Origin: a phage
Sequence record: PX880103.1
Strand: one strand, 5' to 3'
DNA length: 64,000 nt
Every line of letters starts with the position of its first letter. Position 1 is the stretch's first letter. Shown here piece by piece: positions 27,228-45,811 of the stretch. Made by a program: the position numbers and the translations under genes. The notes beneath the pieces are model-generated. The model searched no databases, had not been told where the DNA came from, and worked only from the letters and a program-made list of their open reading frames with translations.

Positions 27228-27248
27228 TTTGTGTTCCTCCGTAGTTGA

Positions 27249-27287
27249 TAGTTGTATAGTACCACAGAGGAACGGTCTTGTAAACAA
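27249..27287 (-). promoter_or_regulatory. Early promoter
   Basis: Minus strand GTTGTTTACAAGACCGTTCCTCTGTGGTACTATACAACT. Confidence 0.6.
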
Positions 27288-27590: not shown

Positions 27591-27691
27591 CATTACCTCC
27601 ATTTACCAGTTTAATTTTAGTCATCTTTTTGATGGCAGTCCATATAATCTATTTCTGAACTGCCTTTTTGTCATAGAAGTCCTCTTATGAA

Positions 27692-28660
27692 TTATTTCAG
27701 AAGAGTAACCTCAGCAATTTCTTCCCAACCGTTTTTGTCGGTCATAATAAAGTCAGCAAGATAAAGAGCGGTACGCAGTGAAACATTGCGTAAACGGTTA
27801 ACATTGACTTTCATCCATGATAATGCTTTATAAGTTTCTTCATCAGAAAGACCGCGCTTTTGCATCATGTCGGTTGAAAGAATAACATCTTCAACCCTGA
27901 CCATAATTTCTTCATTAGTGTGAACACCCAAATCTAAATAAACTGAGCGGGACACTAATGCTTGTAAATGTGGAGCAAGTTTAGTACCACGGTCTAATTC
28001 GCGGTCAATATCAACGTTTGTGATAAAAACAATTGTTCCTTTAAATTCAAACTCACGATCAATGCCTTTTTCTTCTAAGTAAGAAGATGCAGTGCTCCAG
28101 CAGACTTTACGGGTCTCTCCAGTGTCCAGAGCAGCTTTCAGAAGATTAAGAATGTCCATATCAGAAAAAACATCCACATCATCAATCAAAAGGACAGAAT
28201 TCTCTTCACGATTATTCCAAAGCTGCTCATAAAGACCGATACCAGAGATTTTACCATTAATGCTTTTATACTCAATGTATCCAATATCATTTGCTTTATT
28301 CAAAGCTTTATCTAAAGAATACGTTTTACCAATACCCGCCGCACCAGAGATAATTAATGAACGAATATTTCCGTTAATAATACCATTCGTCATCATTCCC
28401 ATAACATTAAATCTTTTATTAATGCGGGTTTTCATATCTTCATATGATTCTTTAACTTCTTCAACTTTTACACCATCATATGAAATGTCTGATTTATAAA
28501 CCCAAACACCGCGACGTTTACCATCAATTTCAACAAAAACTTTACCGTCTCCTTGTGCATCTACCGGAGCATTATCTGGGAACCATTCGCCTAAGAGTTC
28601 AAAGGTTCCAGAGATTTCTTTACCGAAGTAGATACCCTTATTGATAGTTACAGTTTTCAT
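27692..28660 (-). CDS. P-loop NTPase (AAA-like ATPase) with N-terminal extra domain
   Basis: Walker A GAAGIGKTY, Walker B VLLIDDVD; start moved to MKTVTINK with GGAGAA SD. Confidence 0.6.
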   Translation of the reverse strand: MKTVTINKGIYFGKEISGTFELLGEWFPDNAPVDAQGDGKVFVEIDGKRRGVWVYKSDISYDGVKVEEVKESYEDMKTRINKRFNVMGMMTNGIINGNIRSLIISGAAGIGKTYSLDKALNKANDIGYIEYKSINGKISGIGLYEQLWNNREENSVLLIDDVDVFSDMDILNLLKAALDTGETRKVCWSTASSYLEEKGIDREFEFKGTIVFITNVDIDRELDRGTKLAPHLQALVSRSVYLDLGVHTNEEIMVRVEDVILSTDMMQKRGLSDEETYKALSWMKVNVNRLRNVSLRTALYLADFIMTDKNGWEEIAEVTLLK

Positions 28661-28684
28661 TTTATTCTCCAAATCCGTATCAGT

Positions 28685-28725
28685 TGATAGTTGTATAGTA
28701 CCATAAAGCTTTATGCTTGTAAACA
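28685..28725 (-). promoter_or_regulatory. Early promoter
   Basis: Same motif, upstream of the P-loop ATPase gene. Confidence 0.6.
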
Positions 28726-28740
28726 ACTTTGTGAAAAATT

Positions 28741-28772
28741 TTTGAAATAAAAAAGGGAGCCCGAAGGCTCCC
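28741..28772 (-). terminator. Rho-independent terminator after the nucleotidyltransferase gene
   Basis: Minus strand GGGAGCCUUCGGGCUCCC then UUUUUUAUUUC. Confidence 0.55.
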
Positions 28773-28774
28773 TA

Positions 28775-29788
28775 TCATTTATAATAACTTCGATGGTTTT
28801 CAAGATAGACCTTCTCAAGGAAGTCATCCCAGAAACTCATGTCTACTTTTTGCTGCATACCGTTCTTAGAAGCTTCAGTAGATGCTGCTTCTACTTGATC
28901 GACCACATCTTCCAAAAACTCTTGAACCGTTTTAAATGGATGTTTACCCAACTTCACGTCGAGAATAAATGGAGCATCTTGGAGTGGATAAATCAAGTCG
29001 CCAGTTTTGTAAATTTCCAATAGTTGGAGTCCACCACGACAAGCATGGCTCAGAGCTTTCCAGTCAATACCTTCGTTGGCTTCGGCCTTACGAGCACGTT
29101 CACCATATTCAGCATCTAATTTGTTCAGTGACTGCTTAAGCTCAATAAGAGAAAGCGTTGTCTGATATTTACGACCCAACACAGTGTAGAACGTTTGTGG
29201 GCCTGTTTTCTCATGATTATGGAACACCCATTCACAGAATTCGTTTTCTGGAAGACGATGCTTAATATCTTCAACTTTAGTGCGACGCTGCTTAATAGAA
29301 CCATCTTCTTGGTAATCAACCCATTGCTCAGGGATTTGATTAACTACTTTCAATACATCACGTAATGCAGCCAAACGAGAACCCTTGACACCGTATTTAG
29401 AAGCTTGCTTGCGGACATATCCTAAATATGATTTCATGTTAGTCGTATAAAAACGAGAACGGTTGTCTTGAATAAACTTCCACACATCAGGCAAATCAGA
29501 TTTAACCACTAGTTCAGGTGGAGTGTGAAGCATATCTAATGCTACGGTTTCACCATCTGCTGCTAATTTAAAGAAATATTTAAGACTGTATAGTTCATGG
29601 TCAATATCATCTTTAGTGTTTTTAGATGATGTGTTGTTAGTGTTTTTACTCATGTGCTCTTTGACATTTCCGATAAGAATATCACGAGCAGGAGGAACAA
29701 AAATTTCTTTAAAATCTACATCAGATTCTGGGGTAGAAGTTCCATAAAGATGACTACCAAAATAGCTTTTCATTACTGTTTTCATCAT
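28775..29788 (-). CDS. Putative Pol-beta-fold nucleotidyltransferase
   Basis: N-terminal GS-x10-DVD signature (FGSHLYGTSTPESDVDF), then an alpha-helical region; 337 aa. Confidence 0.5.
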   Translation of the reverse strand: MMKTVMKSYFGSHLYGTSTPESDVDFKEIFVPPARDILIGNVKEHMSKNTNNTSSKNTKDDIDHELYSLKYFFKLAADGETVALDMLHTPPELVVKSDLPDVWKFIQDNRSRFYTTNMKSYLGYVRKQASKYGVKGSRLAALRDVLKVVNQIPEQWVDYQEDGSIKQRRTKVEDIKHRLPENEFCEWVFHNHEKTGPQTFYTVLGRKYQTTLSLIELKQSLNKLDAEYGERARKAEANEGIDWKALSHACRGGLQLLEIYKTGDLIYPLQDAPFILDVKLGKHPFKTVQEFLEDVVDQVEAASTEASKNGMQQKVDMSFWDDFLEKVYLENHRSYYK

Positions 29789-30246
29789 TCAGCCTTATAT
29801 TCAATAACAGGACATACTTTAGCTTTACGAGCTTTTAAAAATTCGACGATAATCGATTTCTTGGGTTGAATAGGAGGTAAACCTTTATACGCTCTATCAA
29901 TATTTTCTACGTGTAAAGCATAATCCTTTTTCCATTTATAATCTTTATATTTTTCATGCAAATGTGCAGGAATAACAAATGAACCGATAATAAGTAAAAC
30001 AACCAAAAGCGCAAGTATAAATGCCGATGGAAGAAGAGTCCATAAACTACCGAAAATAAGCCAACGTTGTAGGCTTTCTGCACAAATAATTGTTAGCCCT
30101 ACGAGTATAGCACATCCAAAAATAGAAACGAAAAATGTAGGAATGGCAATAGACCAAAAATATGCGCATAGTGTCTTAGGTCGTTGCCATTCATCGTTAA
30201 ACAATTTGAATAATTTATAATGCCAAGAGTTTTCATTAATAATCAT
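29785..30246 (-). CDS. Membrane protein (2 to 3 TM helices)
   Basis: 153 aa; two long hydrophobic stretches; stop overlaps nucleotidyltransferase start. Confidence 0.5.
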   Translation of the reverse strand: MIINENSWHYKLFKLFNDEWQRPKTLCAYFWSIAIPTFFVSIFGCAILVGLTIICAESLQRWLIFGSLWTLLPSAFILALLVVLLIIGSFVIPAHLHEKYKDYKWKKDYALHVENIDRAYKGLPPIQPKKSIIVEFLKARKAKVCPVIEYKAE

Positions 30247-30248
30247 AA

Positions 30249-30770
30249 TTATCCTTTCATTGAAGGCGTAACGGTTGTTAAATACTTAATCATAGCTTCA
30301 GCTTCTGATTTTGATAATGAAATTTCTCCATTGTTTTGACGAATAGAAATAAAATCCGGATGACGGTCACCACCAGCTTTTAAAACACACATATAAGTAT
30401 CAGTTTCACCTTCAATATTTGAAATGATTGAAGCAGTTCCACATGAATGCGGTTTTTGATAAATCAATGCAGCTTTTCTTCCGCCATTTGACTGCTCATA
30501 GGCTTTTAATACATCAAGCAAATCAGTTCTTTTATCAATAGCTAAAATGTTATTTTCATCTTCAATGTTAAATCCTTCGGATACTTCATAAAGTGTTACC
30601 CATAAATCACTAATGTCAATAACAGCATTTACTTTTCCACGGCTTTCAAGAGTATGACAAATTTTCTTGATTTCGTCATAACTCATTTTAATAATATCAT
30701 CTCCTTGACTAAGGAAGATGTCATTTTTAAATTCAACACGAATTAAACCGCTTCCACTTGAAATAAACAT
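30249..30770 (-). CDS. Hypothetical protein, paralog of 30777..31322
   Basis: Shares EGFNIEDE and C-terminal KSEAEAMIKYLTTVTPSM with the neighbour's PGFNIESE and KDEAIALKTYLDSVIPTM. Confidence 0.5.
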   Translation of the reverse strand: MFISSGSGLIRVEFKNDIFLSQGDDIIKMSYDEIKKICHTLESRGKVNAVIDISDLWVTLYEVSEGFNIEDENNILAIDKRTDLLDVLKAYEQSNGGRKAALIYQKPHSCGTASIISNIEGETDTYMCVLKAGGDRHPDFISIRQNNGEISLSKSEAEAMIKYLTTVTPSMKG

Positions 30771-30776
30771 ATTTCC

Positions 30777-31322
30777 TCACTTTGAAATCATAGTTGGAAT
30801 AACAGAATCAAGATAAGTTTTTAGTGCAATAGCTTCGTCTTTGGTAAATGTGACAATATGTGCTCGAAAATCGTCAATTTGACGAATAGTTAAGACATCT
30901 CCATCTTCATAACATTTTGATACGTTTAAAACAGTTTCATCATTCTGATTGCAAGCGTTAGTAATAATAGCATTGCAATTTTTAAACCATTTTAAACTAT
31001 GTTTTCTTTCATTAGAATAATAAAAATATTTAATCTTATCTATAAAACTATCCCAATGGATAACTGATAAGCATATTGACTCGCTTTCAATATTAAATCC
31101 TGGGCATGAAGAATAAAAATGAATTTTATGCTCATCATTAATGCTTACAATTTTATCAGTATAAGGATTTTCAATTTTGGTTAAATGAATGATTTCACTA
31201 GGCGTAAAATACAGCATATCGTCTTCTTGTGTCAAACGATACATATTATTTACTTTTTCTATAGCCAATTCACCAAAAAGTGAACTAACTTCTAATACTA
31301 ATCGTTTCGCCGCTACCGTCAT
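30777..31322 (-). CDS. Hypothetical protein, paralog of 30249..30770
   Basis: See neighbour; 181 aa. Confidence 0.5.
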   Translation of the reverse strand: MTVAAKRLVLEVSSLFGELAIEKVNNMYRLTQEDDMLYFTPSEIIHLTKIENPYTDKIVSINDEHKIHFYSSCPGFNIESESICLSVIHWDSFIDKIKYFYYSNERKHSLKWFKNCNAIITNACNQNDETVLNVSKCYEDGDVLTIRQIDDFRAHIVTFTKDEAIALKTYLDSVIPTMISK

Positions 31323-31649
31323 TACATACTCCTCTGAATCATATCAATAATGTTGTTCACCAAATTATAAGTAAACATTGGGTAATTATATTGAATCATC
31401 ACATACACAACAAACAAAACTTTCATTCTCTTCTCCTTGGCAGTTGACAAGATTACTATATCATAACCTTGCCAACTTGTAAACCATTAAATGACGTTTT
31501 CAATAAAATTCTGAAGCTTTGTGTGAGCATCAACCATGATTTTCATTTCTTCTTTGGCGAAAGCTGTACCTCTTTCCCGAGAAGAACATTCATAGTCAGA
31601 AACTGCGTTAGCATATTCTTCAATTAGTTTCATTAAAAACATCTGCTTT

Positions 31650-32217: not shown

Positions 32218-32240
32218 GATGTTCTCCTCTTTATCCGATG

Positions 32241-32277
32241 GTTGTATAGTACCACAGCTCAAACGGAAAGTAAACCG
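32241..32277 (-). promoter_or_regulatory. Early promoter
   Basis: Minus strand GGTTTACTTTCCGTTTGAGCTGTGGTACTATACAACC. Confidence 0.55.
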
Positions 32278-32280
32278 GTA

Positions 32281-32308
32281 AAATGAAAAAAGTCTCCCGA
32301 AGGAGACT
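32281..32308 (-). terminator. Rho-independent terminator after rI.-1
   Basis: Minus strand AGUCUCCUUCGGGAGACU then UUUUUUCAUUUU. Confidence 0.6.
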
Positions 32309-44601: not shown

Positions 44602-44677
44602 TGGTCGAGGCAGTAGGGATCGAACCTACGACCTAGGACTTAGAAGGTCCTTGCTCTTCCTTCTGAGCTATGCCTCG
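44602..44677 (-). tRNA. tRNA-Arg (anticodon UCU)
   Basis: Hand fold: 7 bp acceptor CGAGGCA/UGCCUCG, anticodon loop CUUCUAA, T-loop UUCGAUC, encoded CCA; 76 nt. Confidence 0.85.
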
Positions 44678-44681
44678 GATT

Positions 44682-44756
44682 TGGCGGACGTGATAGGATT
44701 CGAACCTATAACCAATCGCTTAACAGGCGATCGCTCTGCCATTGAGCTACACATCC
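44682..44756 (-). tRNA. tRNA-Asn (anticodon GUU)
   Basis: Hand fold: acceptor GGAUGUG/CACGUCC, anticodon stem AUCGC/GCGAU with loop CUGUUAA, T-loop UUCGAAU, encoded CCA; 75 nt. Confidence 0.75.
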
Positions 44757-44760
44757 AAAT

Positions 44761-44847
44761 TGGTGGGGAGTGATGGAGTCGAACCACCCGAGTCGCAATG
44801 ACAATGGATTTACAGTCCACACCGCTACCTCTACGGGATAACTCCCC
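44761..44847 (-). tRNA. tRNA-Tyr (anticodon GUA), class II with long variable arm
   Basis: Acceptor GGGGAGU/ACUCCCC, anticodon loop CUGUAAA, variable arm resembles bacterial tRNA-Tyr, encoded CCA; 87 nt. Confidence 0.75.
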
Positions 44848-44856
44848 AAATTAATT

Positions 44857-44931
44857 TGGTGGCCCTGGGTGGAATTGAACCACCATCTGGCGATTATGAG
44901 TCGCTTGCTTGAACCTTCCAGCTACAGGGCC
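44857..44931 (-). tRNA. tRNA with anticodon CAU (Met, or Ile if lysidine-modified)
   Basis: Acceptor GGCCCUG/CAGGGCC, anticodon loop CUCAUAA, T-loop UUCAAUU, encoded CCA; 75 nt. Confidence 0.8.
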
Positions 44932-44939
44932 AAATTTTC

Positions 44940-45425
44940 TTATTTTATGTAATATTTATTTAAAAACTTTCTAGCTTGAGTATGGCTAACATTTATAGCG
45001 TTTGCATAATTTTTAATAAAACCTCGTTCATCCATATTAAAATTTTCTAATATTTTTAATCGTCTAGTTATCTCATCTTGACTTAAGGTACTTGCATTAT
45101 TTTTAGAAATTTTTTCTAAGGACTGTGCCGAGTGTTTTCGACCATTAAAATTAAAATTTTTAGATTTTGGAGGAAATCTAGCATTTAATCTCGCATCTTT
45201 TGTATTTTGATTATTAGTTGCGCAATATATGTTATTTAATGAATATGGTCCTTTATCGCCGAAACGGCACATGCAGTATTCATGACCCTTTCTTCCACGC
45301 TTATCATAATTTCCCGTTGATTTCCACCAATGCAACCATTCATCAAAAGTTAAATTCCATTCAATGTTTCTACGTATAGCAGAATTCCGCTGAGAAATAT
45401 ATTTTGCATAATCTTCTTTCATCAC
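44940..45425 (-). CDS. Putative HNH-family homing endonuclease-like protein embedded in the tRNA cluster
   Basis: 161 aa; GHEYCMCRFGDKGPYSLNNIYCATNNQN cysteine/Asn-rich nuclease-like core plus C-terminal helix-turn-helix-like tail; free-standing between tRNA sub-clusters. Confidence 0.45.
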   Translation of the reverse strand: MMKEDYAKYISQRNSAIRRNIEWNLTFDEWLHWWKSTGNYDKRGRKGHEYCMCRFGDKGPYSLNNIYCATNNQNTKDARLNARFPPKSKNFNFNGRKHSAQSLEKISKNNASTLSQDEITRRLKILENFNMDERGFIKNYANAINVSHTQARKFLNKYYIK

Positions 45426-45469
45426 AAATTTCTCTACTTATTCAATACACTGAGCTAAATCAGCAAAAC

Positions 45470-45559
45470 TGGCGGAGGCGATAGGATTTGAACCTATGAG
45501 TCGCCGGAGCGACTGCCGGTTTTCAAGACCGGTGCATTAAACCACTCTGCCACGCCTCC
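45470..45559 (-). tRNA. tRNA-Ser (anticodon UGA), class II
   Basis: Acceptor GGAGGCG/CGCCUCC, anticodon stem CCGGU/ACCGG with loop CUUGAAA, long variable arm, encoded CCA; 90 nt. Confidence 0.85.
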
Positions 45560-45561
45560 AG

Positions 45562-45635
45562 TCTCCGTGGCAGGATTTGAACCTACGACATTCTGCTCCC
45601 AAAGCAGACGCTCTACCAAACTGAGCTACACGGAG
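45562..45635 (-). tRNA. tRNA-Pro (anticodon UGG), CCA not encoded
   Basis: Acceptor CUCCGUG/CACGGAG, anticodon stem UCUGC/GCAGA with loop UUUGGGA, T-loop UUCAAAU; 74 nt. Confidence 0.8.
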
Positions 45636-45645
45636 TAAATTAAAT

Positions 45646-45719
<74 letters not shown>

Positions 45720-45724
45720 AAATT

Positions 45725-45811
45725 TGGTGCGAGAAGTGGGACTCGAACCCACAAGGAAATCATTCCGCAGCATTTTAAGTGCTGTGCCTTTACCAATTTG
45801 ACCATTCTCGC
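45725..45811 (-). tRNA. tRNA-Leu (anticodon UAA), class II
   Basis: Sequence GCGAGAAUGGUCAAAUUGGUAAAGGCACAGCACUUAAAAUGCUG...CACUUCUCGCACCA; matches T4 tRNA-Leu as remembered; 87 nt. Confidence 0.85.

Follow-up and report, generated by a model that had tools for sequence, protein, structure and literature searches.

The closest described relatives of the gene pair treated here are members of the y05I protein family. T4 MobD.1 (NP_049711, with the UniProt-style name y05I) is encoded between mobD.2 and nrdC.11, and an experimental function is on record for no member of its family; for a second protein, RB32ORF097c/RB51ORF104, the record states no function. The pair lies at positions 30249 to 31322, on the minus strand, of a 64,000-nucleotide (nt) stretch of phage DNA (sequence record PX880103.1), the whole of which is called the window below. 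Its open reading frame (ORF) of 181 amino acids (aa), at 30777..31322, is placed like T4 mobD.1, and its ORF of 173 aa, at 30249..30770, differs in no point of substance from RB32ORF097c and is referred to as 097c. T4 differs from the window in having a single y05I copy and a cassette with the HNH homing-endonuclease gene mobD where 097c and a membrane-protein gene sit. Taken as a whole, the observations are best explained if the y05I paralogues, encoded in a coupled block of genes, adopt a three-repeat fold, dimerise, and act as protein-binding proteins linked to the membrane protein, an account that we put forward tentatively, at slightly under an even chance.

The fold class in question is that of the PC4-like domains. 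In type I domains two repeats lie in one chain, in type II domains two single-repeat chains come together, and a single PC4-like repeat is unlikely to fold alone (PMC7549692). Pur-alpha is the only protein reported to have both types, its repeats I and II pairing within the chain and its repeat III serving for dimerisation; Pur-alpha/Pur-beta heterodimers through repeat III are formally possible (PMC7549692). In their predicted structures the y05I proteins have the same number and order of repeats as Pur-alpha (PUR repeats I-III; PDB 3k44, 5fgo), but the structure-based identity is 5-12%, the phage proteins are acidic rather than basic and their third repeat is of low confidence. Single-repeat PC4-like dimers (the human PC4 C-terminal domain, T5 4bg7, Borrelia Pur-alpha 3n8b and YdbC) are basic and bind single-stranded DNA (ssDNA) or RNA, whereas the y05I_C proteins have no sequence relationship to them and are encoded next to a membrane-protein gene. 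The SsgA/SsgB-like cell-division proteins (3cm1) and the KhtT N-domain (7agv, 7agw) are analogous in function only; they are unrelated in sequence and come from other organisms and genomic contexts.

A pair of y05I-family paralogues

The window was assigned to the genus Tequatrovirus of T4-like phages because its gene order is collinear with that of T4 and its relatives (tk, rI.1, rI, rI.-1, mobD.5 to mobD.2, mobD.1, two extra genes, nrdC.11, nrdC.10, nrdC.9) and because a 2-kb query spanning the gene pair is 97-98.5% identical to several hundred Tequatrovirus genomes. The original prediction, made from the sequence without database searches, had described two paralogous minus-strand ORFs of 173 and 181 aa, co-oriented with and directly upstream of a membrane-protein gene and a nucleotidyltransferase gene. 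The ORFs, their lengths and positions and this arrangement were all borne out, the nucleotidyltransferase gene being nrdC.11. The shared motifs on which the paralogy had been based are present (SEGFNIEDE and CPGFNIESE, as well as KSEAEAMIKYLTTVTPSM and KDEAIALKTYLDSVIPTM), and the similarity extends well beyond them: a BLASTP alignment of the two proteins covers nearly their full length (residues 3-171 against 12-178) with 30% identity, 51% positives and an E-value of 1e-11. Both proteins pass the curated Pfam gathering cut-offs of PF24449 (T4_y05I_N, 24.9 bits) and PF24448 (T4_y05I_C, 27 bits), the 173-aa protein with 114.4 bits (E 4e-33) and 82.9 bits (E 2e-23) and the 181-aa protein with 130.1 bits (E 5e-38) and 74.5 bits (E 9e-21), respectively. 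PHROG 1502 is also matched by both, with E-values of 8.5e-67 and 7.2e-81, over profile positions 1-178 of 178.

The window MobD.1 is 82% identical to T4 MobD.1 and 95-100% identical to the mobD.1 products of RB51 and NR1. The 173-aa ORF is 96.5% identical to RB32ORF097c/RB51ORF104, in the same position, and a GenBank note on the RB51 gene reads 'similar to mobD.1'. By sequence comparison, the 181-aa ORF is the T4 mobD.1 orthologue and the 173-aa ORF is RB32ORF097c, its y05I-family paralogue. The N-terminal domain of MobD.1 spans about residues 7-104 (nt 31011-31304) and the C-terminal repeat about residues 109-174 (nt 30801-30998); in 097c the corresponding parts are about residues 2-94 (nt 30489-30767) and 102-171 (nt 30258-30467), all on the minus strand. 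The gene pair, its paralogy, the Pfam and PHROG families and the T4 promoters are already in the public record. A literature search on mobD.1, y05I, nrdC.11, or mobD together with defence found no functional study of these genes. Public records misname MobD.1 and MobD.4 homologues 'molybdopterin-guanine dinucleotide biosynthesis protein MobD', nrdC.10 and nrdC.11 'thioredoxin', and a T2 fragment 'prohead core scaffold protein'; these misannotations have spread across databases.

Shine-Dalgarno sequences (GAGGAG and GAGGAAAT) precede the two paralogues. The ratio of nonsynonymous to synonymous substitution rates (dN/dS), summed over six or seven Tequatrovirus sequences for each gene, was 0.24 for mobD.1 and 0.14 for 097c, compared with 0.16 for the membrane-protein gene and 0.07 for nrdC.11. 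Both ORFs are intact, and in view of these values mobD.1 and 097c are kept by purifying selection. They are also dispensable in some lineages. A frameshift splits 097c in phage NR1, mobD.1 is recorded as fragments in T2 and fPS-90, and the T4 segment nrdC.11-mobD.3 was lost in viable genome-reduced mutants (PMC9825161). Both are non-essential accessory genes of Tequatrovirus phages. It could be thought that one copy is redundant, has no separate function and is decaying, since 097c is absent from T4 and 46 other records, is frameshifted in NR1, and is merged with mobD.1 into one gene in natural chimeras. Yet both ORFs are intact in the window and in more than 400 genomes at no less than 80% identity, both genes retain ribosome-binding sites and translational coupling, and their split is ancient, so that a useless copy would long ago have decayed. 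On the dN/dS values we rejected a decaying duplicate, as well as a chance ORF artefact, as the explanation of the pair; the former was already disfavoured and is very improbable.

Predicted fold and internal repeat

AlphaFold2 modelled MobD.1 with a mean predicted local distance difference test score (pLDDT) of 76, exceeding 90 over residues 10-100 and falling to 50-70 in the C-terminal domain; the mean for 097c was 70. Both models share a topology of three beta-beta-beta-beta-alpha units as assigned by DSSP, and as predicted models they are significantly similar in structure to solved members of the PC4-like/PUR/Whirly fold. Pur-alpha was among the best structural neighbours, followed by MRP1/2 (trypanosome guide-RNA-binding proteins), plant Whirly, DUF155, SsgA-like proteins, the KhtT N-domain, an isolated PUR repeat III, Borrelia Pur-alpha, PC4/Sub1 and the PC4 homologue of phage T5.

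The repeats can partly be traced in the sequence as well. Alignment of repeat 1 with repeat 3 by hhalign, which does not depend on the models, gave a score of 26.4; 200 column shuffles scored 8.7 ± 1.9 and never attained that value. The two repeats are in register over beta3-beta4-helix (LTQEDD..LYFTPSEI with IRQIDD..VTFTKDEA). There was no hhalign signal between repeats 1 and 2 or between repeats 2 and 3. At the sequence level, the y05I protein retains a trace of its own repeat origin. The helix of repeat 3 (K.EA.AL..YL..VIPTM) is the most conserved stretch of the family.

No PUR, Whirly or PC4 Pfam family was matched at E-values up to 1, and a search of the family profile against all PDB sequences returned a single hit, a carboxysome protein with an E-value of 0.34, which we dismissed as chance. 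Since sequence searches related y05I neither to PUR, Whirly or PC4 models nor to any PDB chain, we file it, from its models, as probably folding or working like these proteins and not as a member of their families.

By analogy with Pur-alpha we infer from the models a comparable layout: repeats 1 and 2 would make up a single domain, and repeat 3 would serve for dimerisation. Repeats 1 and 2 would pack within the chain into the well-modelled N-terminal domain. The lone repeat 3, unable to complete the fold, would pair with another repeat 3 and give homodimers, possibly also MobD.1/097c heterodimers where both proteins are present. Three observations fit such a layout: repeat 3 is modelled at low confidence when alone, its helix is the most conserved part of the family, and single-repeat genes exist. 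As a property of a model, the low pLDDT of the lone repeat 3 is compatible with a need for a partner and is no proof of it.

Conserved linkage to a membrane-protein gene

Directly downstream of 097c lies the gene of a 153-aa membrane protein (29785..30246, minus strand; RB32ORF096c, PHROG 944). The protein has two hydrophobic segments and a basic C-terminal tail ending in ...FLKARKAKVCPVIEY, and is basic overall, with an isoelectric point (pI) of 9.3. It matched no Pfam family; SUR7, DUF2207_C and Salyut appeared below threshold, did not recur among the seven homologues scanned, and were rejected. Its family has invariant motifs near both ends, M.I...SWH and LC.YFW at the N-terminal side and KA.K.K.CP at the C-terminal side, and two cysteines are likewise invariant. 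The family occurs in 913 phage records, including one from a jumbo Serratia phage.

In each of the Tevenvirinae loci examined, the membrane-gene homologue is immediately preceded by a gene containing y05I_C. These loci are those of Tequatrovirus, Gaprivervirus SP18, Tegunavirus fHe-Yen9-01, Jiaodavirus, Karamvirus and twelve further IMG/VR contigs. The gap between the two genes is 1-21 nt where junctions were read, while the membrane proteins outside Tequatrovirus are 25-35% identical to that of the window. In these loci nrdC.11 lies downstream of the membrane gene, at times past up to three inserted genes. The y05I gene of Tegunavirus, Jiaodavirus and Karamvirus encodes a single repeat only. 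Within Tequatrovirus, 097c and the membrane gene were lost together in T4, and the natural chimera retains a 097c-type C-terminal repeat adjoining the membrane gene.

The C-terminal part is also the slowly changing one. In the diverged alleles of mobD.1 (phage 4E10) and 097c (T2), the N-terminal domain is 37% and the C-terminal part 65% identical in one comparison, and 41% and 77% in the other. When 1.84 billion representative proteins were searched exhaustively with the profile, only 28 family members were found at E-values of 0.001 or better. Among them are full-length proteins and also stand-alone ones, 67-87 aa long, that equate to no more than the C-terminal domain; the latter were recovered only by this search and not by a word-indexed family-alignment search. 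The conserved C-terminal repeat would be the core module, working with the membrane protein encoded directly downstream, because it exists as stand-alone proteins of 67-87 aa and because its allele identity is 65-77% as against 37-41% for the N-terminal domain.

Charge and the type of partner

The y05I family is acidic, with pI values of 4.1-5.8 and net charges of -3 to -27, one basic single-repeat member excepted. Both window proteins carry a net charge of -7 (pI 5.3 and 5.0), and orthologues reach -19 to -27. The conserved polar residues of the N-terminal domain are mostly acidic or amide, K98 being conserved too. The fast-diverging acidic N-terminal domain would bind a variable partner, more likely a protein than a nucleic acid. 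These roles of the C-terminal core module and of the N-terminal domain are read from charge, synteny and divergence pattern. That the proteins bind proteins, with the C-terminal repeat engaging the membrane protein and the variable N-terminal domain a changing partner, we hold with moderate confidence.

The obvious competing explanation is that the y05I proteins are ssDNA- or RNA-binding proteins or transcription factors, which bind on the beta-sheets of a PUR-like domain; one possibility would be an RNA repair or modification module, in which they hand RNA ends to nrdC.11, the RlaP nucleotidyltransferase transcribed together with them. The best structural neighbours, Pur-alpha, MRP1/2, Whirly, PC4/Sub1 and the T5 PC4 homologue, do bind nucleic acid, and the linkage to the RlaP ('RNA repair pathway') nucleotidyltransferase is conserved. 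PMC11077065 describes a Whirly-like RNA-binding protein in jumbo phages. The Pfam names of both y05I domains, 'putative transcription factor', point the same way, but this label rests on the fold alone and fits poorly with the acidity of the proteins, which argues against it. SsgA-like proteins, the KhtT N-domain and type VII secretion chaperones score equally well as structural neighbours. None of these three is known to bind nucleic acid. Binding of nucleic acid by the y05I proteins appears somewhat unlikely.

Age of the pair, alleles and family size

The original prediction had called the pair a tandem duplication. That the genes are adjacent paralogues holds, but the duplication is not recent: no DNA-level repeat linking mobD.1 and 097c was found in the window, the proteins are only 30% identical, and a crude neighbour-joining tree places the 097c clade outside every mobD.1 orthologue, those from Gaprivervirus-like phages and other genera among them. 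On these sequence grounds, the pair is not a recent tandem duplication but goes back either to an old paralogy or to acquisition from some distant relative.

Sequences with at least 80% identity to 097c are present in 434 phage records. The two genes do not vary in step. In phage 4E10, 097c is 99.4% identical to that of the window and mobD.1 only 48.6%, and T2 has a 58% variant of 097c. Two mobD.1 alleles of about 48% identity (window 30777-31322 against 4E10) thus occur in Tequatrovirus beside a flanking 097c that is 99.4% identical. The last ~45 residues of the two alleles are nearly identical, giving a sharp mosaic boundary within the gene.

The y05I family appears, from the sequences searched, to be confined to T4-like phages. 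A few hits bear bacterial names (Shigella, E. coli, Enterococcus); they have either both y05I domains or part of one, and probably represent phage DNA within bacterial assemblies. Directly upstream of mobD.1, Gaprivervirus SP18 and related IMG/VR genomes have a gene of 65-71 aa that carries the family's repeat signature, GIsIeQdDDvIyLdAsQVEaLYsIL. It matches the N-domain profile weakly (E 0.002-0.01) and may be a further single-repeat paralogue.

The allelic pattern bears on a further explanation, in which the y05I proteins are early decoys or inhibitors of host factors, serving counter-defence or host takeover, and the membrane protein is functionally unrelated. With their acidic, fast-evolving N-terminal domains the y05I proteins would bind a host protein, for instance a nuclease or sensor, or mimic its substrate, and two paralogues with deeply diverged alleles would broaden the target range. 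The genes are small, acidic and non-essential and lie behind an early-promoter-like site; both paralogues are deeply diverged within one genus (4E10 mobD.1, T2 097c); isolates frequently carry them disrupted (097c in NR1, mobD.1 in T2 and fPS-90); and the family, with its 28 representatives, is restricted to T4-like phages. However, no PADLOC defence family was found for any of the five proteins scanned at E-values up to 0.01, named anti-defence families were unmatched in Pfam and PHROG, and dN/dS among close relatives is well below 1, with no sign of positive selection at that scale. NCBIfam and PADLOC scans gave no match for the gene pair or its neighbours. Such a role would also leave the deeply conserved adjacency of the C-terminal repeat and the membrane gene unexplained, and we regard it as unlikely.

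Three states of the locus

Positions 29790-30751 of the window, which comprise the membrane gene and 097c minus its first 19 nt, are swapped in T4 for an 808-nt cassette encoding the HNH homing endonuclease mobD. Upstream of mobD, T4 (NC_000866) still has the beginning of 097c, with its ribosome-binding site and six initial codons (MFISSG), equivalent to window 30752-30776. Because of this relic, a comparison of the sequences indicates that T4 descends from a two-paralogue state and that mobD replaced 097c and the membrane gene. The mobD cassette is found in only 47 phage records, all at 99% identity or more, compared with 427 records for the membrane gene and 434 for 097c at the 80% threshold. 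The window is a mobD-less allele and may contain the MobD target.

A third state was seen in six metagenomic contigs, which contain a single chimeric gene followed by the membrane gene and nrdC.11. In the chimera, mobD.1 supplies the N-terminal two thirds and 097c the remaining C-terminal third. The two parts meet in an 8-nt microhomology, TGAAACTG, which lies at homologous positions of both genes (mobD.1 nt 384-391, 097c nt 363-370). The locus exists in three states, the pair, the chimera and the mobD replacement, a reconstruction added by this analysis. A separate endonuclease polymorphism nearby concerns a seg-like homing-endonuclease gene, which RB51 has between nrdC.9 and nrdC.10 and the window (about 27686-27710) lacks.

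Probable transcription unit

The best-scoring sigma-70 promoter-like site of the region lies just ahead of mobD.2 and mobD.1 (31483..31455, minus strand). It reads TTTACA-17 nt-TATAGT with an extended -10 TG (TTTACA-17-TGaTATAGT), has a predicted start near 31448, and is almost unchanged in T4 and RB51. In the alignment, window 31448 corresponds to T4 coordinate 57954, 7 nt past the -10 hexamer. Pe57954 and Pe57.9 are named early promoters of T4, and the genes downstream are expressed at 5 min (PMC6024815). By way of sequence equivalence, the T4 data suggest early expression of mobD.1 and 097c.

The genes behind this site are closely packed. mobD.2 (31322..31426, minus strand) is a 34-codon ORF that is annotated in T4 and RB51 and conserved in the alignment, and its stop overlaps the mobD.1 start (TAATG). 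The gaps between mobD.1 and 097c and between 097c and the membrane gene are 6 nt and 2 nt, and the stop of the membrane gene overlaps the start of nrdC.11 (ATGA), so every junction from mobD.2 to nrdC.11 is an overlap or a gap of 6 nt or less. The last gene, nrdC.11 (28775..29788, minus strand), encodes an RlaP-family nucleotidyltransferase of the Pol-beta superfamily, as judged from Pfam PF10127 (E 1.7e-11), PHROG 388 and synteny. Directly after its stop, an intrinsic-terminator-like hairpin with an 8-bp stem, six GC pairs and a T-run lies at 28754..28773 on the minus strand. No terminator-like site was found inside the mobD.2-nrdC.11 block. A second terminator-like hairpin (32291..32308, minus strand) follows rI.-1 and closes the unit that precedes the mobD.5-to-nrdC.11 block. 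Terminators are annotated in phage NR1 at both places.

The original prediction had suggested that the pair may share a transcription unit with the genes downstream. Promoter-like site, coupling and terminator support this, at the sequence level, for mobD.2, mobD.1, 097c, the membrane gene and nrdC.11, and the hairpin at 28754..28773 is the probable end of the unit. The suggestion does not extend to the ATPase gene nrdC.10 (AAA-like; listed ORF 27692-28726, annotated start near 28660, minus strand), which is probably transcribed separately because it lies past the terminator and behind an early-promoter-like element of its own.

That element is one of three copies, 78-100% identical, of a 27-nt sequence at window 27243-27269, 28682-28708 and 32233-32259; on the minus strand this sequence includes the GGTACTATACAAC portion of T4-type early promoters. 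The copies precede nrdC.8, nrdC.10 and mobD.5; in the case of nrdC.8 the listed ORF holds the copy in a spurious N-terminal extension. Translated within over-long ORFs, the element gives the recurring peptide GTIQLST. At the junction of the pair itself, mobD.1 and 097c are in one reading frame, separated by the spacer TGA GGA AAT (window 30771-30779), which contains the Shine-Dalgarno sequence of 097c; RB51 and 4E10 have the same arrangement. Read-through of the TGA would give a hypothetical fusion of 357 aa. Elsewhere in the window, an Rfam scan of its full length detected a cluster of eight tRNA genes, a T4-type tRNA region, at 44605-45811 on the minus strand.

Discussion

The account of the y05I proteins as dimerising partners of a membrane protein has several points to contend with. 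The C-terminal repeat, on which dimerisation would depend, is modelled at a pLDDT of 50-70 only, and a sequence-level link to any PUR, Whirly or PC4 family is lacking. Most characterised proteins of the PC4-like fold bind single-stranded nucleic acid, and charge alone is insufficient against that explanation. T4 keeps mobD.1 without 097c and without the membrane gene; MobD.1 is therefore not strictly dependent on either. Conversely, no y05I neighbour was detected beside the membrane-protein gene of two more distant phages, Serratia phage BF and Aeromonas phage P19. The sole functional data are the dispensability of the T4 segment and early expression downstream of the T4 promoters.

As to the process that a membrane-linked, protein-binding pair would serve, host takeover, exclusion and counter-defence are all possible. 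A more specific picture may be drawn from the analysis, in which an acidic, protein-binding adaptor of the Pur-alpha type forms homo- and heterodimers through repeat 3, docks on the membrane protein, and belongs to an early Tevenvirinae module together with the RlaP nucleotidyltransferase. In this full form it is doubtful.

The gene pair as found matters little, as it is already annotated and the region is dispensable in T4. What is added here is the three-repeat, Pur-alpha-like reading, the argument from acidity, the conserved gene order and the three states of the locus, which are leads and not demonstrations. The locus illustrates how a homing endonuclease replaced accessory genes in the reference phage T4, which is atypical here, with 47 records carrying the cassette as against about 430 with the two-gene arrangement. 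The conserved unit is a gene for a single PC4-like repeat and a membrane-protein gene, with the RlaP nucleotidyltransferase gene downstream, and it offers a concrete, testable handle on three uncharacterised genes of the T4 group. If the more specific picture above is true, the y05I proteins would be a phage example of an arrangement that the 2020 review reports for Pur-alpha only, and the block would be a previously unrecognised early module, serving for example exclusion or counter-defence, whose specificity would be set by the variable N-terminal domains.

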